DNA from: Cylindrospermopsis raciborskii Cr2010
GTDB taxonomy: Bacteria; Cyanobacteriota; Cyanobacteriia; Cyanobacteriales; Nostocaceae
Direction: 5' to 3'
Length of the DNA: 32,000 nucleotides
NCBI RefSeq assembly: GCF_003367075.2
Contig: NZ_CP065936.1
Coordinates: 810,001 to 842,000 of the forward strand
Under the pieces are notes generated by a model. That model saw only the letters and a list, made by a program, of their open reading frames with translations. It was not told where the DNA came from and made no database searches. The translations under genes were made by a program, and so were the position numbers. Positions 3,688 to 22,313 of the stretch are shown one piece after another. Each line of letters opens with the position of its first letter. Position 1 is the first letter of the stretch.

Positions 3688-3975
3688 ATGACAAGTCTTT
3701 ATGAAAAAGATTTCTGCCAATGGGTTGAGCAGACTACCCATTGTCCCGTTAATGGTGATTTTGCAGCAATTGATGTTGAGCATTTAGTTGAGGAATTAAA
3801 GGATCTGGGTAACTCCATTAAGCACTCTTTAGAGAGTAACTTAACTATCTTGCTAGCCCATCTACTAAAGCTGATGGTTCAGTCTGATGCACCCCCTAGT
3901 ATGAAGAACAATTGGTATAATTCCGTCAAAGAGTTGCAAAACTCCTACACAAGAATCCTTGAGAATTATTATTGA
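3688..3975 (+). pseudogene. DUF29 family gene, 3'-truncated (95 aa versus about 140-155 aa in the paralogues)
   Basis: 'LYEKDFCQWVEQT...IDVEHLVEELKDLGNS.KHSLESNLTILLAHLLKL' aligns with the DUF29 protein at 13545..14012. It ends early, where it overlaps the convergent TetR gene end by 7 nt. Confidence 0.6.
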
Positions 3976-4595
3976 ATTGTGGATTCCTTCACCAAAACTC
4001 CATTTAAGAATATATCTGCTAAACCTTCGGCCATTTGTTGCATTTCCTGGGGAGATGCATTTGGTTCAATTAGAGTGTGATCAGAAAAACCTGCGATCGC
4101 GAACATTCCTAAAAATACTTTAGCAACCAATTTAGCATCCATTTGGCGATAGATACCCCTATCCATGGCGGTTTGGAAAAATGCTTCTGCAACACTGGTC
4201 ATTTTATCAATCACCTCAGTTTGGATGCGATTCTGCAAATCTGGATGAAACTGCACCTCCATGAAACAAACTCGCATCAAATCAACATTCTTTTGCATGT
4301 TCCACATTCTGCGACGCATAACCTGAGCTATGGCTTTATAACTACCCATTTCACTCAATTCTGTCAGTAGGTCCGTGAGAATTTCTACCCAACCATTGGT
4401 TGCTACCTCTACCAGAATTGCCTTTTTATTGGCAAAATGACGAAAGAGTGTACCCTCAGCAACTCCTGCAGCGTGGGCTAAATCACGGGTAGTAGTGCTA
4501 TCAAATCCCCTGGAAGCAAATAAACGCAATGCTGCTATAACAATGCGGCTACGGGTTTGAGCTTCTGAAGGGGAGGAATAATGAAAAACTGGCAT
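3969..4595 (-). CDS. TetR/AcrR family transcriptional regulator
   Basis: HTH region 'IVIAALRLFASRGFDSTTTRDLAHAAGVAEGTLFRHFANKKAIL'. I chose the start at ATG 4595 (MPVFHY...); the ORF extends to 4640. Divergent from the M16 peptidase pair. Confidence 0.85.
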   Translation of the reverse strand: MPVFHYSSPSEAQTRSRIVIAALRLFASRGFDSTTTRDLAHAAGVAEGTLFRHFANKKAILVEVATNGWVEILTDLLTELSEMGSYKAIAQVMRRRMWNMQKNVDLMRVCFMEVQFHPDLQNRIQTEVIDKMTSVAEAFFQTAMDRGIYRQMDAKLVAKVFLGMFAIAGFSDHTLIEPNASPQEMQQMAEGLADIFLNGVLVKESTIQ

Positions 4596-4748
4596 AGTAG
4601 TTATTCGGTGTGTGTTAGGGAACACGAATTTTATCTGCATTGTCTAACATGAAAGTTAGGAAGTACGGAAAGCTTAATAGAAGATTAATGCTTTGTTTGC
4701 TATCTGACCGGAATTTTAAAGAATTGTAAATTTAGTTGGATTTTTGCT

Positions 4749-6296
4749 ATGACCCATTGGATTTTTACTTGTATGAGGCGTTTTCTGGTAATAACCCTAG
4801 CATTTTTCTTATTTTGTGGTAATTTTCCCATTCAAACAGCGATCGCCCTACAAGGTAATCAAAGTTCGATTAAGCCCTATTTAGACCGAGTTGTTAAGCA
4901 ACTAACAGAGTTCACTTTAGATAATGGTTTAAAGTTTATTGTCTTGGAAAGACATCAAGCACCCGTGGTTTCTTTTCTGACTTATGCAAATGTTGGGGGG
5001 ATAGATGAACCAGATGGACAAACAGGAGTAGCTCATTTTTTGGAACACTTAGCTTTTAAGGGAACTAAGCGTATTGGTACAACAAACTACAAAGAGGAGA
5101 AGCCCTTATTAGATAAATTAGAGCAATTAGATAGTCAAATTAGAGCTGCCAAGAGTGAAAATAGAACGGAAGAGCTAGAAAAGCTAAAAAAAGAGTTCAA
5201 AACCGTAGAAGCTCAAGCTGGGAAATTGGTGAAACAAAATGAAATGGGTCAAATAGTTGAACAAGCTGGAGGTGTGGGTTTAAATGCTAATACTTCTAGT
5301 GAAGCAACCCGTTACTTTTATAGTTTTCCCGCCAATAAATTGGAGCTGTGGATGTCTCTGGAATCAGAAAGATTTTTAGAACCGGTATTCCGAGAATTTT
5401 ATAAAGAAAGGGATGTGATTTTAGAAGAAAGACGAATGCGGGTAGAAAATTCTCCCGTAGGGTTAATGGTTGAAAAATTCACCGATGTTGCTTTTAAAGT
5501 TCACCCTTACCGGAGACCTGTTATTGGTTATGATGAAGATATTCGTAACCTTTCTCCAGCTAATGTGAGGGAGTTTTTTAACAAGTATTATGTTCCCAGT
5601 AATTTAACCATTGCGGTGGTTGGTGATGTTAACCCTAATCAGGTTAAAAGATTGGCCAAAATTTATTTTGGTAGATATCCAGCTAAACCGAAAGCACAAG
5701 CTAAAATTAACCCCGAACCTAAACAAACCAGCACCAGAGAAATTACCGTAGAACTACCCTCACAACCTTGGTACTTGGAGGGCTATCATCGTCCTAGTAT
5801 CACTGACCCCGATAACGCTGTTTACGATATTATCAGCAGTTTACTAAGTAATGGTAGGACTTCACGACTGTATAAATCTTTGATTGAAACCCAAAGAGTG
5901 GCTTTGGTGGCGGAAGGGATTAGTGGTTTTCCAGGAGACAAGTATCCTAATTTAATGTTATTTTATGCTCTGACAGCACCAGGTCATACAGTAGATAAAT
6001 TGGCGATCGCCCTAGGTCAGGAAATTACCAAATTGCAAACCCAGCTCGTATCTGAGAAAGAATTAGAGCGAGTCAAAACACAAGCTAGAGCAGGTTTACT
6101 AAGGAGTTTAGATTCCAATATGGGTATGGCACAGCAACTATTGGAATATGAAGTGAAAACAGGTTCTTGGCGGAATTTATTCAAGCAATTGGATGACATT
6201 ACAAAGGTTACCCCTGCGGATATTCAAAGAGTAGCACAATCAACCTTCACAGCGGAAAATCGCACAATTGGTAAATTACTTTCCCAAAAATCATAG
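4749..6296 (+). CDS. M16 (pitrilysin) family zinc peptidase, catalytic-type subunit, with N-terminal signal/TM
   Basis: 515 aa. Inverted zinc motif HxxEH is present ('GVAHFLEHLAFKGT'). N-terminal hydrophobic segment 'FLVITLAFFLFCG'. Confidence 0.85.
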   Translation: MTHWIFTCMRRFLVITLAFFLFCGNFPIQTAIALQGNQSSIKPYLDRVVKQLTEFTLDNGLKFIVLERHQAPVVSFLTYANVGGIDEPDGQTGVAHFLEHLAFKGTKRIGTTNYKEEKPLLDKLEQLDSQIRAAKSENRTEELEKLKKEFKTVEAQAGKLVKQNEMGQIVEQAGGVGLNANTSSEATRYFYSFPANKLELWMSLESERFLEPVFREFYKERDVILEERRMRVENSPVGLMVEKFTDVAFKVHPYRRPVIGYDEDIRNLSPANVREFFNKYYVPSNLTIAVVGDVNPNQVKRLAKIYFGRYPAKPKAQAKINPEPKQTSTREITVELPSQPWYLEGYHRPSITDPDNAVYDIISSLLSNGRTSRLYKSLIETQRVALVAEGISGFPGDKYPNLMLFYALTAPGHTVDKLAIALGQEITKLQTQLVSEKELERVKTQARAGLLRSLDSNMGMAQQLLEYEVKTGSWRNLFKQLDDITKVTPADIQRVAQSTFTAENRTIGKLLSQKS

Positions 6297-6319: not shown

Positions 6320-7837
6320 ATGGTCAGGAGTAAAAAATTGAAATTTTCACGTAATATTTTCCCCAAGTTGGGTAGAACTTGGCAATTATTTTTCGCGGTA
6401 GTAATTGCCTTAGTATTGACCTTGAATTTCTCAAGGGTAGCAACAGCAGCAGCGAAGCATTATACCGACTTACAATTCAATTCTTTACCGGGAATTAAAC
6501 TGCCAAAGTATGAGCGATTCCAATTAAACAACGGTTTAGTCGTCTATTTAATGGAGGATCATGAATTACCCTTAGTTAGTGGAACAACTCTAATTAAGAC
6601 TGGTAGTCGTTGGGAAGCAGGAGACAAAGTTGGTTTGGGTGACGTTGTAGGTTCACTAATGCGCATTGGAGGAACTAACAAACACTCCCCGGATGAACTA
6701 AATGAAATTTTGGAGCAAAGAGCAGCATCCGTAGAAACTGATATTAATGAAAGCACTGGAACTGCGAGTTTTGAAAGTTTAACTGAAGATTTAGAAACTG
6801 TGTTCGGGTTGTTTGCAGAAGTCTTACGAGAACCAGCTTTTGCTCCAGAAAAGTTGGAATTGATTAAAACTCAAATTAAGGGAAGTATTGCCCGTCGCAA
6901 TGATGATTCTGACAATATTGCCAGTCGGGAGTTTCGCAAATTAATCTATGGTCAAAATAGTCCCTATGCACGCACTATAGAATATGCAACTCTGGATAAA
7001 ATCCAGCGAGAAGATGTGATTAACTTCTATCGGAAATATTTCCATCCCAATAACATAATCCTGGGAATTGTGGGGGATTTTAACCCGAAAAAAATGCGCT
7101 CTCTGATTCAGACTAAACTGGGTGATTGGCAACCTAATCTCAACATTGCTAAAACTCAATTACCACCAGTGCAGCAAGCTAATTTAAGTGGGTTATTCTT
7201 TGTCAATCAACCACAACTGACACAGAGCAGCATTTTGATGGGACATTTGGGGGGAAAATTCAATAGTCCAGATTATGCAGCATTAGATGTGATGAATGGT
7301 GTGCTAAATGGGTTTGGAGGAAGACTATTTAATGAAGTGCGATCGCGCCAAGGTTTAGCCTACTCTGTATATGGTTTATGGAATCCCCGTTTTGATTATC
7401 CGGGTGTGTTTATTGCTGGTGGACAAACTCGTTCTGATGCTACCGTACAGTTTATAAAATCCATTCAATTAGAGATTGAGCGCATTCAAAAGCAACCAGT
7501 AACAGCGAAAGAATTAAGGTATGCTAAGGAGTCCACCCTAAATTCTTTTGTATTCAATTTTCAGGATCCAGGTCAAACCCTGTCACGGTTAATGCGTTAT
7601 GAATATTATGGTTATCCTGCTGACTTTCTGTTTCGCTATCAAAAAGCGGTGACAAAAACCACAGCTGCAGATGTGCAAAGAGTGGCTCAGAAATATCTCA
7701 AACCAGAGAATTTAGTTACTTTAGTCGTAGGAAATCAAAGTGCCATTCAACCACCGTTAACCCAGTTAGCAAGTAAAATTACACCAATAGATATCACCAT
7801 TCCCGGATCTCAAGACACAGGCTCAAAAATCAACTGA
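6320..7837 (+). CDS. M16 family peptidase-like protein lacking the HxxEH motif (non-catalytic-type partner)
   Basis: 505 aa, paralogous in layout to the upstream gene. The equivalent position reads 'GDVVGSLMRIGGTNKHS'. There is a 23-nt gap from the upstream gene, so an operon pair is likely. Confidence 0.8.
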   Translation: MVRSKKLKFSRNIFPKLGRTWQLFFAVVIALVLTLNFSRVATAAAKHYTDLQFNSLPGIKLPKYERFQLNNGLVVYLMEDHELPLVSGTTLIKTGSRWEAGDKVGLGDVVGSLMRIGGTNKHSPDELNEILEQRAASVETDINESTGTASFESLTEDLETVFGLFAEVLREPAFAPEKLELIKTQIKGSIARRNDDSDNIASREFRKLIYGQNSPYARTIEYATLDKIQREDVINFYRKYFHPNNIILGIVGDFNPKKMRSLIQTKLGDWQPNLNIAKTQLPPVQQANLSGLFFVNQPQLTQSSILMGHLGGKFNSPDYAALDVMNGVLNGFGGRLFNEVRSRQGLAYSVYGLWNPRFDYPGVFIAGGQTRSDATVQFIKSIQLEIERIQKQPVTAKELRYAKESTLNSFVFNFQDPGQTLSRLMRYEYYGYPADFLFRYQKAVTKTTAADVQRVAQKYLKPENLVTLVVGNQSAIQPPLTQLASKITPIDITIPGSQDTGSKIN

Positions 7838-8073: not shown

Positions 8074-8310
8074 ATGGACATAAAAATCAGTGATCTATAC
8101 CCTAATGGTGATGGCGACCTTTTGCAAGAAGTTACTCCTGGCGAAATGGTTAATATCCAAGGAGGTGTAAGACGAAGAAGGAGAAATTCCAATTCGGTTG
8201 AGAGTGGTGATATTTCCCAAATTTTAGGACGTGTCAACGACAACCTAGAAAGATGGAGAGTGGAGATTGATGACACACTAGATCAATTGAGAGATTCAGT
8301 CACCTTCTAA
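8074..8310 (+). CDS. Small peptide (78 aa) with a double-glycine type leader ('GEMVNIQGG') and a highly charged core beginning VRRRRRNSNS
   Basis: SD-like GAGGTGA at 8060-8066, 7 nt before the ATG. The leader 'MDIKISDL...DLLQEVTPGEMVNIQGG' fits the bacteriocin-type GG leader pattern (L..L....E(L/M)..I.GG). Confidence 0.55.
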   Translation: MDIKISDLYPNGDGDLLQEVTPGEMVNIQGGVRRRRRNSNSVESGDISQILGRVNDNLERWRVEIDDTLDQLRDSVTF

Positions 8311-8555
8311 CCTTTGAGTTAAGTTTTTACTAATTCTTATTATTCCTCCCTTGGTCAAGGGGGGATTTATTATATATTCAGGTAGCTGTTTTTAAAAACA
8401 GAAGGACATTAAATCATGACTAATGTCCAATCAACACAGTTCAAACCCTTGATTTTTTAAATTTTCTCCCATAAAAATAGGAGTATGGGTTGAGCAAACG
8501 TCAAACGCTCCCATCCCATATTCACCAATAAGAACAAGTATTCTAGGAGGAAATT

Positions 8556-8786
8556 ATGGCAAGTATTAAACTGGATCAGTTACAAACTACTGGTTCTGAA
8601 CTATTTCAAGATTCTGAAAGTTTTCTCAATGATATGAGTGATATCAACTCTATTTCTGTTCATGGAGGATTCGGATCCAATGTGAGTGACATGTCCATAT
8701 TCACCAAATTAGCAGAAGCATTTGTCAATACCTACGGTATTGGTCATATTGCCTATTTGGCTAAGTCCTACAGCAGTGGAGTATAA
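8556..8786 (+). CDS. GG-leader precursor-like peptide, tandem paralogue 1 (76 aa; leader to ...SISVHGG, 38-aa Cys-free core)
   Basis: RBS AGGAGGAAATT immediately before the ATG. The 38-aa leader 'MASIKLDQLQTTGSELFQDSESFLNDMSDINSISVHGG' is near-identical in paralogues 2 and 3. Core: FGSNVSDMSIFTKLAEAFVNTYGIGHIAYLAKSYSSGV. Confidence 0.75.
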   Translation: MASIKLDQLQTTGSELFQDSESFLNDMSDINSISVHGGFGSNVSDMSIFTKLAEAFVNTYGIGHIAYLAKSYSSGV

Positions 8787-8849: not shown

Positions 8850-9086
8850 ATGGCAAGTATCAAATTGGGTCAATTGCAAACCACTGGTTCTGAACTATTT
8901 CAAGATTCCGAAAGTTTTCTCAATGAAATGAGCGATGTCAATTCTATCTCTGTTTATGGTGGTGGGTCTGATGTTAGTGACATGTACACTCTCACTAAAT
9001 TAGGAGAAGCATTTGTAAATACCTACGGTATTGGTCATATCGCCTATTTAGCTAAGTCTTATAGTGATCATGATTATTATTGGTAA
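8850..9086 (+). CDS. GG-leader precursor-like peptide, tandem paralogue 2 (78 aa; C-terminal tail DHDYYW)
   Basis: RBS GAGGAGGAAATT immediately before the ATG. The leader differs from paralogue 1 at 4 residues. Core: GSDVSDMYTLTKLGEAFVNTYGIGHIAYLAKSYSDHDYYW. Confidence 0.75.
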   Translation: MASIKLGQLQTTGSELFQDSESFLNEMSDVNSISVYGGGSDVSDMYTLTKLGEAFVNTYGIGHIAYLAKSYSDHDYYW

Positions 9087-9163: not shown

Positions 9164-9397
9164 ATGGCAAGTATCAAACTGGGTCAATTGCAAACCACCG
9201 GTTCTGAACTATTTCAAGATTCTGAAAGTTTTCTCAATGAAATGAGCGATGTCAATTCTATCTCTGTTTATGGTGGTGGATCTTATGATTTCAGTGATAT
9301 GTCCATATTCACCAAATTAGCAGAAGCATTTGTCAATACCTATGGTATTGGTCATATTGCCTACTTAGCCAAGTCCTACAGCGACTACGACTACTAA
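9164..9397 (+). CDS. GG-leader precursor-like peptide, tandem paralogue 3 (77 aa; C-terminal tail DYDY)
   Basis: RBS GAGGAGGAAATT immediately before the ATG. The leader is amino-acid-identical to paralogue 2. The core centre is nucleotide-identical to paralogue 1 over 43 nt. Confidence 0.75.
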   Translation: MASIKLGQLQTTGSELFQDSESFLNEMSDVNSISVYGGGSYDFSDMSIFTKLAEAFVNTYGIGHIAYLAKSYSDYDY

Positions 9398-9510: not shown

Positions 9511-9720
9511 ATGGCTAAAATTATGATCAATGATCTGGAGCCTATTAACTCAGAAACATTCATTAATGATCTGAATAATCAAAATTCTCAAGCTATTTTT
9601 GGTGGTGAAGATCCTTATTTTGATGGACTGATAAATTTTGGCATCAAAACTCTTGAGTTTATGGTTGTTATCACAGCTATTAATGCCATTTCTTTTCTAG
9701 TATATTCCTTTCAAGAATAA
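9511..9720 (+). CDS. Divergent GG-leader peptide (69 aa; leader ...NSQAIFGG, hydrophobic 37-aa Cys-free core)
   Basis: 'MAKIMINDLEPINSETFINDL....AIFGG' follows the same leader pattern as paralogues 1-3 (I.L..L...SE.F...). Core: EDPYFDGLINFGIKTLEFMVVITAINAISFLVYSFQE. The stop is 17 nt before the kinase-like gene. No obvious SD. Confidence 0.5.
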   Translation: MAKIMINDLEPINSETFINDLNNQNSQAIFGGEDPYFDGLINFGIKTLEFMVVITAINAISFLVYSFQE

Positions 9721-9737
9721 CATATCTCCTAAAAATT

Positions 9738-10901
9738 ATGCCATTTGTTTTAAGTTCTGAAAACGTTTTTTCTTACCTGATTTCTCAAAGAATTTGCACT
9801 CAAGAAGAGCAATCAGCAAGCAAGATTGATCTCAAATCTGCTAAAAATTTTAATCTATTACTTACTTTACCCGATAACCGTCAATTATTGGTGAAACAAG
9901 AACGTATTAATCGAGAGGGTAAAACCAGCGGTGAGTTTATAGATGAATGGCAAGTTCATAATTTTTTTCAGACATTTTCAGCAGTAAATCATCTTCGTTC
10001 ATCCCTATCAGAAGCAATACATTTTGATCAGGCAAATTCCATCCTTGTCTTCAACTATCTCAGAGAATATCGGGATATAGGTGAGTTTTATGCCCGAGAA
10101 AATTTATTTCCCATGACAATTGCTCGCTCCCTAGGGGAAATATTGGCATCAATTCATCAGTTGACTTTAGATCGTCCAGAATATGAAAATTTCTTTCAAA
10201 ATTCTCAGATCACCAGAAAACATAAAAATTCTCACGTACATGAGGGAATCCCTAGAATTACACCGGAACTATTTGGTCAACTGACTGCAGATGATTTAAA
10301 ATTCTTTTCCCTGTATCAACGTTATGACAATTTGGGGAAAGCAATTTCCCAATTGGGTCAATCCTATCATGCTTGTTGTTTGACCCATAATGACCTAAAA
10401 CTCAATAATATTCTCCTGTCTTTAAATTGGGAATCTACAATAAGTCAATCATCCGGTAATATCCGGGGGGAAAAAATAATTCGCCTCATTGACTGGGAGC
10501 GTGGTAATTGGGGAGATCCAGCAAGTGATTTAGGTTCCATAATTGCCAGTTATTTACAAATTTGGCTATATAGTATGGTAACCAGTCGAACTATACCAAT
10601 TGAAGAATCACTACGATTAGCAGCTATTCCTTTGCACTTGATACAACCTTCTATAGCAGAACTAGTAGGTGGTTATTTAACTACCTTTCCAGAGATTTTA
10701 GAGCGTCGACCTAATTTTTTGCAATTAGTTGTACAGTTTACTGGCTTTTCATTAATTACCTCCATTCAAGCTAAACTGCAACACGAAAAGACCTTTGGTA
10801 ATTCTGGTATTGCTATTCTTCAGTTAGCCAAAACTCTCTTGTGTCGTCCCCAAACATCCCTCAGCACAATCTTTGGGGAGGATATTAGATTTGAGATCTA
10901 A
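9738..10901 (+). CDS. Protein-kinase-like / APH-fold phosphotransferase (387 aa)
   Basis: Candidate beta3 Lys in 'QLLVKQ' (K53). Catalytic loop 'HNDLKLNN' (aa 217-224, nt 10386-10409) fits HxDxxxxN, and the D-L-K-x-x-N form is typical of Ser/Thr kinases. Metal-binding 'LIDWERG' (D252, nt 10491-10493) resembles the IDxE of APH/MTR-kinase/CotS-type enzymes. Confidence 0.8.
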   Translation: MPFVLSSENVFSYLISQRICTQEEQSASKIDLKSAKNFNLLLTLPDNRQLLVKQERINREGKTSGEFIDEWQVHNFFQTFSAVNHLRSSLSEAIHFDQANSILVFNYLREYRDIGEFYARENLFPMTIARSLGEILASIHQLTLDRPEYENFFQNSQITRKHKNSHVHEGIPRITPELFGQLTADDLKFFSLYQRYDNLGKAISQLGQSYHACCLTHNDLKLNNILLSLNWESTISQSSGNIRGEKIIRLIDWERGNWGDPASDLGSIIASYLQIWLYSMVTSRTIPIEESLRLAAIPLHLIQPSIAELVGGYLTTFPEILERRPNFLQLVVQFTGFSLITSIQAKLQHEKTFGNSGIAILQLAKTLLCRPQTSLSTIFGEDIRFEI

Positions 10902-10962
10902 TTAAGGCGTCAAAAGGTCAGTCAAGGGGATTTTGTTGTTTTTATCTATAGGTGACAAAACT

Positions 10963-12060
10963 ATGCAATTATTAAATTCTCGCAAATTTCAGCTGACACA
11001 ACTCCCTGAGCAGTTGCAAGATTCTCTGCAGGATATGGTTAGTCACATTCAAATTGAGTCTTATTACTCTATTAAGCATACACGCTACAAGCATTCAATT
11101 CTACCAGATTCTGTAACTTCTCAGTTTGAAAGGCTACCTTTAGAGATACAGCAGCAACATTTAAAATTACAATTGCGTAACTTTATATATAACAACTATT
11201 ATAACGTTAACATAAAGAATAAATCAAGTACAGATGAGAACATAGACAGCAGTAAATTGAACAAACAGCTTGAAAACAATAGTTTGTTTGGGGTAGATCT
11301 AGAATTTTATGATCGTCTACACAATGGGAACAAAGGTAAAGGTTACTGGAGTCATAATTGGGAGATTGTCAAGGAAGAGACAGATGGTACCTTAGCAGTC
11401 TATAAGAACGGCTTAACACTGCACATTGACCCCAATTTACATTTATCACCAACAACTCAAGGTCTCAGTGCTGGAAAGACTATATCCGTTAAAATGCCGA
11501 AGAATTTGGTACAAAACGGCTTTTATATGGCCGTAGCTAATGCGGGAACTCAAAACAATCAGGAGATTACCCGCATCTACTTTAATATAGCAGCTGAAGG
11601 AGCAGCAACAGTGATGGAAAGTGTAACGGAATATCTTAATGATCTTGACATTTCATTCTCTTTTAAAGCATTATATAATCCCGGTGATTATCAACGTTAC
11701 GATTCAGCTGTTCTCTATTTTAATAAAAGTCAACATCAGATAGTCTGGCCTGTTTTGCAAAAAGTCTATGCAGAAAATGAATTATACTTTCAGCAACAGG
11801 TTCCCATGTTCACTAAAATACTAGCACCTGGGTTAGGCTGTGCGGAAGAACCAGAGCAAAAATTTGGCGACCAAGAGAGCTTCGGTACTCACCGCTGTCA
11901 AATTATTGCTAATGGATTAATTGAAGCCTGGCTAGCGGGTGATCATACTCCAGAGTACCGCATAAGTGCTATCTTTAAACAGTTTGCATTACAAAACATC
12001 CAGTTACAACATCCTTATCTCAATCCCCATTCTCAGGATATTTATACTCCCTTTTTTTAA
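10963..12060 (+). CDS. HopA1-effector-like protein; putative phospho-Ser/Thr lyase partner of the upstream kinase
   Basis: 366 aa from ATG 10963 (SD-like AGGTGA at 10950-10955); the ORF opens at TTG 10933. The central block 'GFYMAVANAG....ITRIYFNIAAEGAATVMESVTEYLNDLDISFSFKALYNPGDYQRYDSAVLYFNK' matches my recollection of the HopA1 family core (R.Y.N...F.FK....Y.R.D..V.Y). I could not run an HMM search. Confidence 0.5.
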   Translation: MQLLNSRKFQLTQLPEQLQDSLQDMVSHIQIESYYSIKHTRYKHSILPDSVTSQFERLPLEIQQQHLKLQLRNFIYNNYYNVNIKNKSSTDENIDSSKLNKQLENNSLFGVDLEFYDRLHNGNKGKGYWSHNWEIVKEETDGTLAVYKNGLTLHIDPNLHLSPTTQGLSAGKTISVKMPKNLVQNGFYMAVANAGTQNNQEITRIYFNIAAEGAATVMESVTEYLNDLDISFSFKALYNPGDYQRYDSAVLYFNKSQHQIVWPVLQKVYAENELYFQQQVPMFTKILAPGLGCAEEPEQKFGDQESFGTHRCQIIANGLIEAWLAGDHTPEYRISAIFKQFALQNIQLQHPYLNPHSQDIYTPFF

Positions 12061-12204
12061 AAAGGGTTTAATTTCAACTGTGAGGATTATTTCCTCACTA
12101 TCCCAAAACATCACTACCAGTCTCATGTCCAATTTTATGGGGTGTTTAACACGAAACTTTAGTAACTGACAAAATAACTATTTAATGACTGATAGAGGTG
12201 ATAA

Positions 12205-12462
12205 ATGATTCCAGAGAATTTTGAACAAAAGCAAGAGTCAGAAAAGATAGATATAACATTCCAGCATATACAAATTCAGCAAATTATTCATGCCATTATT
12301 GCAGGCAAATATGCTTGGGCCTGTATTTTATTTATTTACTTTTCAGGAAGGGATCCCCTCCACTATATACCTCAAGAAATTTACACTAAGTTAGTGAGAG
12401 ATAATTTTCCACCAGTATCAACTAATCGGGAGTTGACAACTGACAAAAAATTGAGTAGTTAG
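12205..12462 (+). CDS. HetP-family-like small protein (85 aa)
   Basis: SD-like AGAGGTGA sits 3 nt before the ATG. 'IIHAIIAGKYAWACILFIYFSGRDPLHYIPQEIYTKLVRDN' resembles the conserved N-terminal core of HetP and its short paralogues in Anabaena PCC 7120, which I recall as A.LAGKYSWAC.L..RFAGYNP.HYIP.R.YNRL. Confidence 0.55.
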   Translation: MIPENFEQKQESEKIDITFQHIQIQQIIHAIIAGKYAWACILFIYFSGRDPLHYIPQEIYTKLVRDNFPPVSTNRELTTDKKLSS

Positions 12463-12518: not shown

Positions 12519-12886
12519 AAGCTGAACAAAAACGTCTATCTCAAGAACATCAACAGGAATATGAACAACGCCAAAGAAAACATGAAGAAGAGATGGACCA
12601 ATTCCGTATATTTATGGAAGAAACCAGGAAGATGGTGGCTGAAACTAATAAAAATATGGGATCCATCACTAGCAGATGGGGTGAGTTTGTAGAAAACTTA
12701 GTTAGACCTGCTGCGGCGCGATTATTTAAGGAGCAGGGTATTAATGTACACTATACCTCTCTTCAGGTAAAAGCTCATGATTATAAAGGTTCCATAGAAA
12801 TTGATATTTGGGCAGAAAATGATGGTGAAATTGTAGCCATTGAAGTTAAGTCTCACTTACCTCTGGTATCCCAAACTAGACACTAA
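12519..12886 (+). pseudogene. Fragment 1 of a DUF3782-like (coiled-coil plus PD-(D/E)XK-like) gene, truncated at both ends
   Basis: Homology to fragment 3 begins at about 12519, just after HIP1 12499-12506 ('AEQKRLSQEHQQEYEQRQRKHEEEMDQFRIFMEET'). It continues into '...GEFVENLVRPAAARLFKEQGINVHY...IEIDIWAENDGEIVAIEVKSHL' and stops early at 12886, 8 nt before HIP1 12895-12902. Confidence 0.6.
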
Positions 12887-12965
12887 ATGGACAGGCGATC
12901 GCATGTCTATTTGGTAAACAGGATAAGTTATAATAGAAGAAATTTTTACCTAATATTATAGAATT

Positions 12966-13133
12966 ATTAGCAATGAAACTATTACAATCGCAGATATTTT
13001 TGCTTTATTCAAAGAGAGTGAAAGACAAAGAGAAGCGGAACAAAAGCGTCTATCTCAAGAAATTGAACGGGAACGTGAAGAACGTCAACGGGAAAATGAG
13101 GCCCGTCAGCGAAAACATAAGGTTTATTTTTAA
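12966..13133 (+). pseudogene. Fragment 2 of the same gene family: N-terminal part with the start codon mutated (ATG to ATT)
   Basis: In frame from 12966: 'ISNETITIADIFALFKESERQREAEQKRLSQEIERE...RQRKHKVYF*'. This aligns with 'MSNETITLADIFALFKESERQREAEQ..KRLSQE' of fragment 3. The upstream sequence 'GGATAAGTTA(T/G)AATAGAAGAA' is also duplicated. Confidence 0.6.
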
Positions 13134-13301
13134 TTCGTCCAGCAGGAGACTCGGTAGCTATTGACATGAAGGAGGATTTTCAAGCCAAGGTGTGGTAAGT
13201 CTATAAATAGATATGCGATCGCATTTATCGTGTCTATACTACTAGTTGGTAACGTAGGATAAGTTAGAATAGAAGAAGTTTTTACTGAAGGTTATAGACT
13301 T

Positions 13302-13532
13302 ATGAGCAACGAAACAATTACGCTCGCAGATATTTTTGCCTTATTCAAAGAAAGCGAAAGGCAAAGAGAAGCTGAACAAGCTGAACAAAAACGTCTATCT
13401 CAAGAACGTCAACAGGAATATGAACAGCGTCAACGGGAATACGAGGAACGCCAAAGAAAACATGAAGAAGATATGGAGCAATTCCGTATATCTATGGAAG
13501 AAACAGCGATCGCCTTAATGTCTAGTGATTAG
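13302..13532 (+). pseudogene. Fragment 3 of the same gene family: intact start, coiled-coil N-terminus only (76 aa)
   Basis: 'MSNETITLADIFALFKESERQREAEQAEQKRLSQERQQEYEQRQREYEERQRKHEEDMEQFRISMEET'. It then diverges at HIP1 13508-13515 and stops. The nuclease-like domain seen in fragment 1 is absent. Confidence 0.6.
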
Positions 13533-13544
13533 GACTTGGATAAT

Positions 13545-14012
13545 ATGTATAATAAACTGTATGATAGCGATTTAGAATTATGGATCGAACAAACAATTCA
13601 ACAATTGCAAAATCGTGAGTTTGTATCTTTGGATGTTGAGCATTTAATTCAGGAGTTAGTAGATTTGGGTAAGTCCCAGAAGAATACACTTAAAAGTAAT
13701 CTTAAGATATTATTAGCTCACTTACTCAAACTAAAAATTCAGCATGATGCACCTGATATGATGAAAACAAGTTGGTACGGTTCAGTTGTAGAACATCGTC
13801 AACGGGTACTGGATAATTTAGCAGATACTCCATCTCTAAAAGGTTTTCTCGTGGAAGCAGTGGAAAAAGCCTATCCTGATGGACGAAAATTGGCAATTAA
13901 GGAGAGCAAATTTGCTAAATTGGGAGTCCGTCTACCAGAAGAGAGTGAGTATCCCATAATTTGTCCTTTTCAAATAGAGGAAATTCTGGATGAGGACTTT
14001 TATGGAGACTAA
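13545..14012 (+). CDS. DUF29 family protein
   Basis: 155 aa from ATG 13545 ('MYNKLYDSDLELWIEQT...LDVEHLIQELVDLGKSQKNTLKSNLKILLAHLLKL'). The ORF opens at TTG 13536. Confidence 0.85.
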   Translation: MYNKLYDSDLELWIEQTIQQLQNREFVSLDVEHLIQELVDLGKSQKNTLKSNLKILLAHLLKLKIQHDAPDMMKTSWYGSVVEHRQRVLDNLADTPSLKGFLVEAVEKAYPDGRKLAIKESKFAKLGVRLPEESEYPIICPFQIEEILDEDFYGD

Positions 14013-20071: not shown

Positions 20072-20249
20072 GGAGGATAGATTTAAAAACTATTTACAGG
20101 AACATTATAGAGCTTTAACAACTTGTTAACAGATAGACCTGATTTTTGGTTTATGATATTGTATAACTAGAAAGAAGTAAGTAGGGGGCACAATTGTTTG
20201 TAAGATAGATTCTGTTGATTTTTATGCTGTGAAATTTAATTTCAACGTC

Positions 20250-22313
20250 ATGATATGTTGTTTAAATCCCGATTGTCAAAATCCTCAAAATCCCCATGGT
20301 AGCAAGTTTTGTCAAAGTTGTGACACTCCTTTAGTACCACTGTTAAGAAATCGTTTTCGTATTATTCGTGTGCTTTCAGATGAAGGAGGATTTGGCAGAA
20401 CATATCTAGCAGAAGATACAGATAAATTAAATGATAATTGTGTGGTCAAACAATTAGCACCTAAGTTTCAGGGTACTTGGGCACAAAAAAAAGCAATGGA
20501 GTTATTCAGTCAAGAAGCAAAGAGACTGCAAGAATTAGGAGAGCATCCACAAATTCCCACCTTATTGGCTTATTTTGAGCAAGATAAATGTTTATATTTA
20601 GTACAGCAATTTATAGATGGCAATAACCTATTACAGGAGTTACAATTAAGAAAGCACTATAAAGACAGTGATATTCAATCTTTACTACTGGATTTATTGC
20701 CTATTCTTAAATTTCTTCATAGTCGGGGAATAATTCATCGAGATATCAAACCAGAGAATATTATCCGACGTAAAAGGGATGGAAGATTAATCTTAATTGA
20801 CTTTGGTTCTGCCAAACAATTAACAGTTGCAGTTCAAAAAAAATATGGTACTTCTATTGGATCCCATGGTTATTCTGCTATAGAGCAAATTAGAGATGGC
20901 AAAGCCTATCCAGCTAGTGATTTATTTAGCTTGGGTGCTACTTGTTTTCATCTCTTAACTGGTCTATCTCCCTTTCAATTGTGGATAGAACATGGTTATA
21001 GTTGGGTCAAGAATTGGCAAGATTGCCTTAACAATTCTAGGAGTGCTGAGCTAATTATTATTTTAGATAAGCTATTACAACTAGATCTGAAAAATCGCTA
21101 TCAATCTGCTGATGAAGTTATAAAAGACCTTAGTAAAAAGAATGTTTATGGTTCAAAAAAATCTGGCATATACCTTAAAAAGGGTAAACATGAAAAACAT
21201 AAACATACTATTTTGCGAAATATATTTTTGATTTTGGTAACAATTTCGGTTGTGGGGGGATTGGGATATAGGAACTTAGGTCAAATGCAAACGGCAATTT
21301 TCTCTCAATTTAATCCTTTATTAATACCAAGTAATAAATCTTCTACCAGTCCCGAGTATGGGCAAATATCTGGGAGAACTTCCTCTATTAGAACTAACAA
21401 AGTTAGTTTACTCAAAACCATAACACAAGTAGATAAATCCCTAGCAGTGGTGGCTATTACTCCAGATGGTAATACTATTGTCAGTGCGGGTCACAAAGAA
21501 ATTAAATTATGGAATAGCAAAACGGGCAAACAAATTATATCCCTACCAGGACATACACAAAATATCAACGCTCTTGCCATTAGTCCAGATGGAAATAACC
21601 TAGTGAGTGCGGGAGATGATAAAACGATTAAAGTTTGGAATTTACAAACAAAAAAACTTACTTTTAATCTAGTTGGTCATCAAGACTCAATTCAAGCACT
21701 AGCTATTAGTCAAGATAGCAAAATCCTAGTTAGTGCGGGAGATGATAAAACAATTAAAGTTTGGAGTCTATTAACAGGAAAGTTTTTAAAAACTCTCCTA
21801 GGCCATAATTATTGGGTTAGATCTTTAGCTCTTAGTCCCGATGGGTTCACTCTAGCAAGTGGAAGTTTTGATAAAACTATTAAAATATGGAATATTAATC
21901 AAACCAGTGGGCAAAAACCAACTACACTATTAGATACTACTTCCCAAACAGTCACATCTTTAGCTTTTAGTCCGGACACTAGTACACTTGTCAGTACCAG
22001 TCGCGATCGCCAAATTAAGTTTTGGGATATTAAGAATAAGGAGATAATTTTTGCCAGTAAAAAACAAAATGTTACATCTGTGATTTTCAGTCCCGATGGT
22101 AAAACCCTGATTAGCAAAGCCAAAAGTTGCCCAGATTGTTCTGAGAAAATTTCCTCTGTGATTAAATTATGGGATGTAAGCACAAAGGAAGAAATTTACG
22201 CTCTACCAGGAAACACCAAAATTGTTACATCCTTAGTTTTAAGTGCTGATGGTAAAACTTTAGTGGGTGGAACAGAAGATAATAAGATTAATATTTGGGA
22301 GATTTCTCCCTAA
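20250..22313 (+). CDS. Ser/Thr protein kinase with N-terminal zinc-ribbon, central TM segment and C-terminal WD40 repeats
   Basis: 'CLNPDCQNPQNPHGSKFCQSCDTPL', 'HRDIKPENII', 'IDFGSAK', TM segment 'IFLILVTISVVGGLG', and repeated 'GH...I.ALAISPDG..LVSAGDDKTIKVWNL' units. I chose the start at ATG 20250. Confidence 0.85.
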   Translation: MICCLNPDCQNPQNPHGSKFCQSCDTPLVPLLRNRFRIIRVLSDEGGFGRTYLAEDTDKLNDNCVVKQLAPKFQGTWAQKKAMELFSQEAKRLQELGEHPQIPTLLAYFEQDKCLYLVQQFIDGNNLLQELQLRKHYKDSDIQSLLLDLLPILKFLHSRGIIHRDIKPENIIRRKRDGRLILIDFGSAKQLTVAVQKKYGTSIGSHGYSAIEQIRDGKAYPASDLFSLGATCFHLLTGLSPFQLWIEHGYSWVKNWQDCLNNSRSAELIIILDKLLQLDLKNRYQSADEVIKDLSKKNVYGSKKSGIYLKKGKHEKHKHTILRNIFLILVTISVVGGLGYRNLGQMQTAIFSQFNPLLIPSNKSSTSPEYGQISGRTSSIRTNKVSLLKTITQVDKSLAVVAITPDGNTIVSAGHKEIKLWNSKTGKQIISLPGHTQNINALAISPDGNNLVSAGDDKTIKVWNLQTKKLTFNLVGHQDSIQALAISQDSKILVSAGDDKTIKVWSLLTGKFLKTLLGHNYWVRSLALSPDGFTLASGSFDKTIKIWNINQTSGQKPTTLLDTTSQTVTSLAFSPDTSTLVSTSRDRQIKFWDIKNKEIIFASKKQNVTSVIFSPDGKTLISKAKSCPDCSEKISSVIKLWDVSTKEEIYALPGNTKIVTSLVLSADGKTLVGGTEDNKINIWEISP

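Follow-up and report, generated by a model that had tools for sequence, protein, structure and literature searches.

We describe here a gene cluster in a 32,000-nucleotide stretch of the Cylindrospermopsis raciborskii Cr2010 genome (contig NZ_CP065936.1, forward-strand positions 810,001 to 842,000; this whole stretch is called the window, and positions are counted from its first letter), in which five small peptides with double-glycine (GG) leaders are encoded directly upstream of a kinase gene and a HopA1-like gene. On the evidence of sequence and structural models, we assign the kinase and the HopA1-like protein as a LanK/LanY-type split Ser/Thr dehydratase, because LxmK/LxmY is their best match in the PDB, their predicted catalytic residues are invariant and one gene adjoins the other in 81 of 81 loci. 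We consider it probable that the operon dehydrates the adjacent peptides, none of which contains Cys. The original prediction, made from the letters of the window, had proposed a kinase plus HopA1-fold pair of the type that makes dehydroalanine (Dha) and dehydrobutyrine (Dhb), and this is borne out by the AlphaFold2 (AF2) models, both of which have LxmK/LxmY as top PDB matches. For comparison, species-representative genomes were scanned for related loci, yielding 284 relatives, of which the best 80, almost all from Nostocales, were analysed; counts over 81 loci refer to these 80 together with the window itself. The two enzyme genes are the following.

9738 to 10901, + strand: predicted LanK/LxmK-like peptide Ser/Thr kinase of the APH fold, 387 aa (Pfam, NCBIfam, AF2 model).
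10963 to 12060, + strand: predicted LanY/LxmY-like HopA1-fold phospho-Ser/Thr lyase, 365 aa (Pfam; sequence, profile and structure matches in the PDB).

The kinase matches the Pfam family APH (1.5e-8) and aligns from end to end with the NCBIfam model 'class V lanthionine synthetase subunit LxmK' (2.4e-22). Its ATP-binding Lys, its H-x-D-x-x-x-x-N loop and its Mg-binding Asp are all intact, the loop being H217-N-D219-L-K221-L-N-N224, and residues K53, H217, D219, K221, N224 and D252 are invariant in all 81 loci in which kinase residue conservation was assessed. When AF2 monomer models of the kinase and the lyase were compared with the PDB, the kinase model came closest to LxmK (9dk3_A; E 2e-10, TM 0.60/0.67), followed by less good matches to methylthioribose kinases, PsiK and antibiotic kinases; a search of PDB sequences with the kinase profile gave no match, LxmK being found by structure comparison only. 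The D-L-K-x-x-N form of the catalytic loop, which the original prediction took as the mark of a Ser/Thr-kinase variant, is real and invariant, but it is a weak argument for that variant and was rejected as evidence, as the protein is APH/choline-kinase-like and matches Pkinase only at E 0.15.

The reading frame of the lyase is open from 10933/10963 to 12060 and matches Pfam HopA1 at 2.3e-67. Since the homologues all begin with MQLL, we place its start at the ATG at 10963, giving a protein of 365 aa, not the 366 aa first reported. The closest PDB entry is LxmY (9dk1_B, PDB 9DK1), which is matched by the single sequence (8e-8), by the profile (8e-10) and, along its whole length, by the AF2 model (mean predicted local distance difference test, pLDDT, 82; E 3e-17, TM 0.65-0.79). 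Weaker structural matches are those to Pseudomonas syringae HopA1 (4rsw among them; 3e-6), to the lyase domains found in class III lanthipeptide synthetases (E about 1e-3) and, weakly, to OspF/SpvC (E 0.05-0.2). Similarity to HopA1 and to phospholyases, the absence of which had been named as a reason to abandon the HopA1 assignment, is thus present, and the assignment therefore stands.

Residues R204, K235, R245, D247 and Y252 of the lyase are invariant in the 40 homologues aligned, and they align with the K…RRD…Y of LxmY. The spacing of R204, K235, R245 and Y252 (31/10/7) corresponds to R187, K219, R229 and Y236 of CaoY, in which R187A and K219A abolish or nearly abolish elimination and R229Q impairs it (Liang et al. 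2022, PMC9486802), and these four are our candidate catalytic residues. According to Liang et al. (2022, PMC9486802), the His106 of OspF has no counterpart in the LanY family and its Lys104 is exchanged for Arg; judged by CaoY, the window lyase would likewise lack this His and have Arg for Lys104, with the equivalents of the catalytic Lys136 and Tyr158 of OspF/SpvC conserved. With OspF/SpvC and the class III lyase domains it would share beta-elimination chemistry on a distantly related fold, though it is a separate polypeptide that goes with an APH-type kinase and not with a eukaryotic-type protein kinase.

In 81/81 loci the HopA1 gene directly follows the kinase gene in the same orientation, and in 80/81 the most numerous of the peptides, called type B here, are encoded upstream of the kinase on that strand. 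The gaps in the window measure 17 nt between the last peptide and the kinase and 61 nt between kinase and lyase. Kinase and HopA1 genes that occur together next to leader-bearing precursors are what is expected of split dehydratases, and the two-gene plan of APH kinase and HopA1 lyase is the same as that of LxmK/LxmY (lexapeptide) and CaoK/CaoY (cacaoidin; PDB 9DK1-9DK3). These class V split dehydratases have the Arg/Lys/Arg/Tyr set that is conserved in the window lyase, and neither they nor the window have a RiPP (ribosomally made, post-translationally modified peptide) recognition element (RRE). Both characterised pairs dehydrate peptides in vitro, the leader docking on the C-lobe of the kinase, the kinase phosphorylating Ser/Thr and the lyase eliminating the phosphate.

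Beyond the dehydration step the window departs from these systems. Pfam scans of its larger open reading frames (ORFs), the basis for the domain absences given here for the window, revealed no LanC-like cyclase, second APH-like protein, LanD, YcaO or RRE, and neither a cyclase nor LanD was found among the recurrent neighbours in the 80 loci. The lack of a cyclase is not decisive by itself, some class V pathways having no known cyclase, and the lack of an RRE protein, noticed in the original prediction and found again in our scans, is to be expected, because in class V-type pathways, in which a cyclase is often lacking, it is the kinase that recognises the leader. We nevertheless conclude that this is not a lanthipeptide system, since the cores are Cys-free throughout the family and cyclase, LanD and YcaO are all missing. 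In contrast to class V, the window has Cys-free substrates and no detected cyclase, LanD or reductase, so neither lanthionine nor aminovinyl-methylcysteine (AviMeCys) would be formed; its leaders are of the double-glycine type and not of the actinobacterial type A (PMC9486802), and its host is a cyanobacterium. The thioamitide enzymes TsaC/TsaD are also a phosphotransferase and HopA1-like pair, needed for site-specific dehydration of Thr. TsaD is required for this step in thiostreptamide, and, the thioamitides apart, it is matched best by a Cylindrospermopsis HopA1 protein with 31% identity (PMC8153245). Unlike that system, the window has no YcaO/TfuA, cysteine decarboxylase or C-terminal Cys that our scans could find. 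The statement of the original prediction that nothing is available to capture Dha or Dhb holds in that the peptides have no Cys and no cyclase was found in the window.

The five peptides fall into three types, of which type B has three paralogues.

8074 to 8310, + strand: type A peptide, 78 aa, leader ending …EMVNIQGG, Arg-rich charged core, single-copy.
8556 to 8786, + strand: type B precursor 1, 76 aa, leader MASIKL…ELFQDSESFL…VHGG, core ending …YLAKSYS-SGV.
8850 to 9086, + strand: type B precursor 2, 78 aa, core ending …YLAKSYS-DHDYYW.
9164 to 9397, + strand: type B precursor 3, 77 aa, core ending …YLAKSYS-DYDY.
9511 to 9720, + strand: type C precursor, 69 aa, leader ending …AIFGG, hydrophobic core ending …AISFLVYSFQE.

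A conserved N-terminal leader element, …GSELFQDSESFLNE…GG, is present in the peptides, and the leaders of types A (GG-type) and C are related to that of type B. The three type B paralogues lie in a direct repeat with a unit of ~300 nt. In 80 loci 267 type B copies were found, and the 257 unique sequences have a very conserved leader with the consensus MA.I.LSEL..GSELFQDSESFLNEL.D…GG. The composition first reported for the peptides is correct, core 1 having 38 aa after GG with 8 Ser/Thr and 3 Tyr, and the translated ORFs end in SYSSGV, SYSDHDYYW and SYSDYDY exactly as claimed. None of the five has Cys, also as claimed, and the same is true of the family, in which Cys occurs 3 times in the ~10,800 type B core residues examined, against 0.83% in neighbouring proteins.

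The description of the cores as rich in hydroxyl residues was correct in its counts, but a conserved motif matters more than the richness. Type B cores have 18% Ser/Thr against 12% in the background, and general Ser/Thr richness was set aside as the key signal; this enrichment is modest, and the conservation of the motif by position is the more informative. Near the C-terminus of the core the 257 unique sequences read A (79%), K (79%), S or T (92%), F or Y (84%), S or T (87%). In the 63 loci without an aldo/keto reductase gene (see below), which is the subtype of the window, K[ST][FY][ST] is found in 195/209 cores, and 62/63 loci have at least one core with it. The motif is followed by a hypervariable tail of 2-14 residues, 20% of them Tyr, and 115/195 of these tails end in Tyr. 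Further upstream in the core, Lys51 is conserved at 78% and His64 at 45%, and type B cores as a whole are unusually conserved across genera for a RiPP. We regard A-K-S-[F/Y]-S, which is new from this analysis, as a conserved candidate target of modification.

The type C peptide is always the last before the kinase, with a median distance of 85 nt to the kinase start; a type C query matched 62 loci, and 60 matches were classed as such. Its consensus, …K.lEF.L.iyAI.sIs.La.SF…, includes a conserved Ser and a conserved terminal S-F. Type A homologues are present in 45 loci, always on the + strand and upstream of the kinase. The type A core in the window, VRRRRRN…WRVEIDDTLDQLR, is charged and probably helical, and a terminator-like hairpin lies at 8344-8365, 3' of the gene. 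This peptide is a candidate for a partner, an immunity protein or a regulator.

The enzymes and the cores vary together. In 14 loci (L048, L050, L052, L055, L063, L069 and eight others) the HopA1 gene is directly followed by a gene for an aldo/keto reductase of 346 aa (for example L048 11098-12138 and L052 6028-8387), and the precursors of this sister subtype have the same leader with Asn/Thr-rich cores of 'NANT' repeats, in which K[ST][FY][ST] is found in 0/41, although the Fisher p-value for the contrast overstates independence, as the loci are related by phylogeny. Core type thus co-varies with the set of tailoring enzymes, the window belonging to the K-S-[F/Y]-S subtype, and the reductase might process dehydro residues.

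Both the locus and the peptide family are already in published genome-mining datasets, and their chemical product is uncharacterised; our full-text search of the literature on HopA1, class V lanthipeptides, cyanobacteria and the peptide motifs found no published characterisation. The locus is the same as in Family 1A of Eyles et al. (2021, PMC8153245), where the five window peptides are listed verbatim under C. raciborskii GIHE 2018, the type A peptide being in network 8 of the supplementary data. The architecture had thus been recorded before: that dataset contains the same peptides together with the HopA1 protein of Cylindrospermopsis. Family 1A comprises 570 peptides in 183 gene clusters, from cyanobacteria only; its precursors are multiple and non-identical, carry a conserved GG leader and lack a conserved Cys (PMC8153245). 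The window shows the conserved GG leader, the multiple non-identical precursors, the cyanobacterial host and the HopA1/phosphotransferase pair alongside. For the cyanobacterial peptides Liang et al. (2022, PMC9486802) use the name 'type-B' putative LanA. Whereas the Family 1A paper found no conserved Ser/Thr in the cores, A-K-S-[F/Y]-S is strongly conserved in the Nostocales subtype analysed here, and the co-variation of core type with the aldo/keto reductase likewise goes beyond that paper.

Taken together, a pathway can be proposed in which the APH-fold kinase would read the conserved GG leader directly, without an RRE, and would phosphorylate Ser/Thr of the core with ATP, after which the tightly partnered HopA1-fold lyase would beta-eliminate the phosphate to leave dehydroalanine or dehydrobutyrine. 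The likeliest targets would be the two serines of A-K-S-[F/Y]-S, with the S-F of type C as its equivalent. No thioether would be expected, because Cys and cyclase are both missing, and the dehydro residues would most likely persist in a linear exported peptide, from which a C39-peptidase ATP-binding cassette (ABC) exporter, presumably encoded elsewhere in the genome, would cut the leader at GG.

Several points weigh against this proposal. No product of any cyanobacterial member was found in the searched literature, so that dehydration here is a prediction. The two proteins share only 16-18% identity with LxmK and LxmY, the score of the kinase against the LxmK model (79.5 bits) is far under the equivalog cutoff of 315, and the AF2 model of the kinase is of moderate quality (pLDDT 69.7), with the catalytic loop poorly modelled. 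The type A cores are without conserved Ser/Thr. The A-K-S-[F/Y]-S motif could instead be a site of recognition or processing, or a functional surface. Lastly, the scan of the larger ORFs of the 32-kb window found no exporter or C39 peptidase.

Among the alternatives, the one that we take most seriously, though we consider it unlikely, is that dehydration is an intermediate only, with Dha or Dhb captured by a nucleophile other than a thiol (core Lys51, His64 or a tail Tyr being the candidates) or with hydrolysis of Dha cutting the backbone; at K-S-[F/Y]-S such a cut would remove the variable tail with its many Tyr residues, and the peptide would then end in an amide. Other RiPPs do have lysinoalanine rings and C-terminal amides derived from Dha, and the position of the motif, 2-14 residues from the C-terminus and ahead of a hypervariable, Tyr-rich tail, would suit a cleavage of this kind, as the conservation of Lys51, and in part that of His64, would suit a capture. 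The reductase of the sister subtype also suggests that the family can process dehydro residues further. Against this hypothetical reading stand the lack of a gene for such an enzyme in the window, the poor conservation of His64, and the place of the motif's Lys next to the Ser, which makes a ring with that Ser impossible. A speculative extension, to which we give a still lower probability, is that the K-S-[F/Y]-S peptides are Nostocales-wide Cys-free dehydropeptides in which Dha has a role new to RiPPs; tail-shedding self-cleavage that leaves an amidated helix, or a non-thiol cross-link, could then be the chemistry, and the mature peptides might act in filament physiology and not as antibiotics, with a link to heterocyst commitment through an Asl1930-type HetP protein.

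Very unlikely, in our view, is that the peptides are unmodified secreted GG peptides, such as bacteriocins resembling class II, or matrix or signal peptides like EbfG, while the enzyme pair acts elsewhere, for example on a protein linked to the neighbouring HetP-like regulator. The GG peptides EbfG1-4 of Synechococcus do act without such enzymes, HopA1 itself acts on proteins of the host, the lyase is followed by a HetP-like gene in 28/79 loci, and the core conservation across genera is unusual for a RiPP. What speaks against it is that in 80-81 of 81 loci the peptides, kinase and lyase share one orientation and lie almost without gaps, that core type changes with the tailoring-enzyme set, that the leader with ELFQDSESFL is that of the family adjoining HopA1 proteins in the RiPPER mining (Eyles 2021), and that both enzymes and the peptides are retained in Raphidiopsis brookii D9, from which the HetP-like gene has been lost. 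The least probable of the readings is the phosphorylation-only option of the original prediction, with stable phospho-Ser/Thr as the product and the HopA1-like protein as a scaffold or leader-binding partner. Eyles et al. (PMC8153245) at first left a non-catalytic role for TsaD open, and the acidic cores contain many Ser and Tyr residues; but the residue set that mutagenesis showed to be needed for elimination by CaoY is fully invariant in the lyase, and its fold matches the active LxmY over the whole length. Dehydration of the Cys-free peptides by a LanK/LanY-type pair is thus the interpretation that we prefer.

Around the peptides and the two enzymes lie genes that are less constant. The original prediction saw the block of peptides, kinase and lyase correctly but missed the M16 peptidase pair, the HetP-like gene and the fact that an export module found in relatives is absent here. 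The neighbouring genes in the window are listed below.

3969 to 4640, - strand: TetR-family regulator (Pfam TetR_N 7.7e-17), a syntenic neighbour whose membership is uncertain.
4749 to 6296, + strand: M16 peptidase 1 (Pfam Peptidase_M16_C 6.7e-30, M16 6.5e-17).
6320 to 7837, + strand: M16 peptidase 2 (Pfam Peptidase_M16_C 1.2e-37), grouped in one family component with 4749-6296.
12205 to 12462, + strand: HetP-family protein, 85 aa (NCBIfam HetP_family 2.6e-23), 145 nt 3' of the lyase gene.

In the 58 loci with at least 9 kb of upstream sequence, the M16 pair is found upstream in 37, about two thirds of the relatives, and a TetR homologue in 34, while a gene for a DUF4332 protein lies upstream in 28 loci. 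The M16 pair and the TetR gene were considered as core members of the cluster and rejected as such; owing to these counts we treat them as frequent neighbours. Both M16 peptidases start with hydrophobic, signal-like N-termini and therefore may act outside the cytoplasm on exported peptides, and the one at 4749-6296 is a candidate for a second processing protease.

Downstream, and on the opposite strand, most relatives carry an export module. Of the 68 related loci with enough flanking sequence, 56 have a gene for a ~1,016-aa cNMP (cyclic nucleotide monophosphate)-binding C39-peptidase ABC exporter, 53 an HlyD gene and 58 a gene for a PpiC/SurA-like peptidyl-prolyl isomerase (PPIase); none of the three was found in the window or in R. 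brookii D9, within the sequence available. This arrangement links the locus with the 'group II' bacteriocin clusters of Wang, Fewer and Sivonen (2011, PMC3140520), which have M16 peptidases, multiple acidic GG precursors and a HetP-like gene as in the window, whereas the long cNMP-C39 ABC exporter, HlyD and SurA-like PPIase that define group II are not found there; the kinase/HopA1 pair was not recognised as a dehydratase in 2011. The same study counted one group II cluster in C. raciborskii CS-505 and gave no group II precursors for it (PMC3140520), and from this count without precursors we infer that the exporter may work in trans.

The HetP-like gene occupies the position of asl1930 in the Nostoc PCC 7120 cluster, for which the group II list gives asl1930 (HetP), a 73-aa ORF without annotation, and asl1933-asl1937, which encode 77-83 aa (PMC3140520, Table S3). 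All1931 and all1932 would accordingly be the HopA1 and kinase genes of PCC 7120, and we found no paper that names them as such. Asl1930 is a hetP homologue, the deletion of which advances heterocyst commitment in PCC 7120. Among the relatives, the HetP-like gene counted above in 28/79 loci lies downstream of HopA1, within 1.5 kb and on the same strand, while a homologue search with the 85-aa protein itself gave 3 matches only, all from Cylindrospermopsis. Identification of the gene as alr3234 was also considered and rejected, as the published 5' untranslated region and N-terminus of alr3234 matched no locus. In some relatives a second, longer HetP-like gene is found ~9 kb downstream, past the exporter gene (L003 20012-20395, - strand), and the C-terminal …KIKDLAYLEVGG motif of its product matches the 'KIxDLxYLE…GG' motif, a putative cleavage motif described in HetP proteins (Wang 2011, PMC3140520).

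R. brookii D9, a non-heterocystous strain in which the peptides, kinase and lyase are kept and the HetP-like gene is absent, is syntenic with the window between 3960 and 12070, the break coming precisely at the stop codon of HopA1. Some 900 nt downstream of its intact HopA1 gene, D9 has the final 157 nt of that gene once more (L001 11864-12020 against window 11911-12067), with 96% identity, which suggests an insertion or rearrangement at the break.

The window as a whole has ~38% G+C and carries HetP, DUF29, pentapeptide-repeat and WD40-kinase genes, which gives it the look of DNA from a cyanobacterium that forms heterocysts, and its HopA1-like and kinase proteins are 99% identical to C. raciborskii proteins. 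Between the HetP-like gene and a DUF29 gene, at 12519-13504, three partial direct repeats (62-86% identity) span pieces of a DUF3782-like ORF that has a Glu/Gln/Arg-rich region (12593-12886, 13302-13532), and they look like duplicated or decayed gene copies. DUF29 genes are at 562-987, 3688-3975 and 13536-14012, one of them truncated, and a Ser/Thr protein kinase with WD40 repeats is at 20229-22313; these are genes typical of cyanobacteria and unrelated to the dehydratase cluster.

Pairs of HopA1 and phosphotransferase genes are present in more than 1,000 genomes, and the Cys-free cyanobacterial branch, with 183 clusters in 2021, is the largest that has no known product. The window locus would be a compact, minimal system for this branch, with three short precursors, two enzymes and no other tailoring genes. 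To what was described before, our analysis adds the conserved Ser motif, the sister subtype linked to a reductase, the separation of the exporter in Cylindrospermopsis/Raphidiopsis and the positional link to an asl1930-type HetP gene, a neighbour that raises a possible connection with heterocyst development. The original authors had also drawn attention to the chemistry on Cys-free cores (Eyles 2021), and the product would reveal the outcome of lanthipeptide-type dehydration with no thiol at hand, be it an electrophilic dehydropeptide, a cleavage or a new cross-link.

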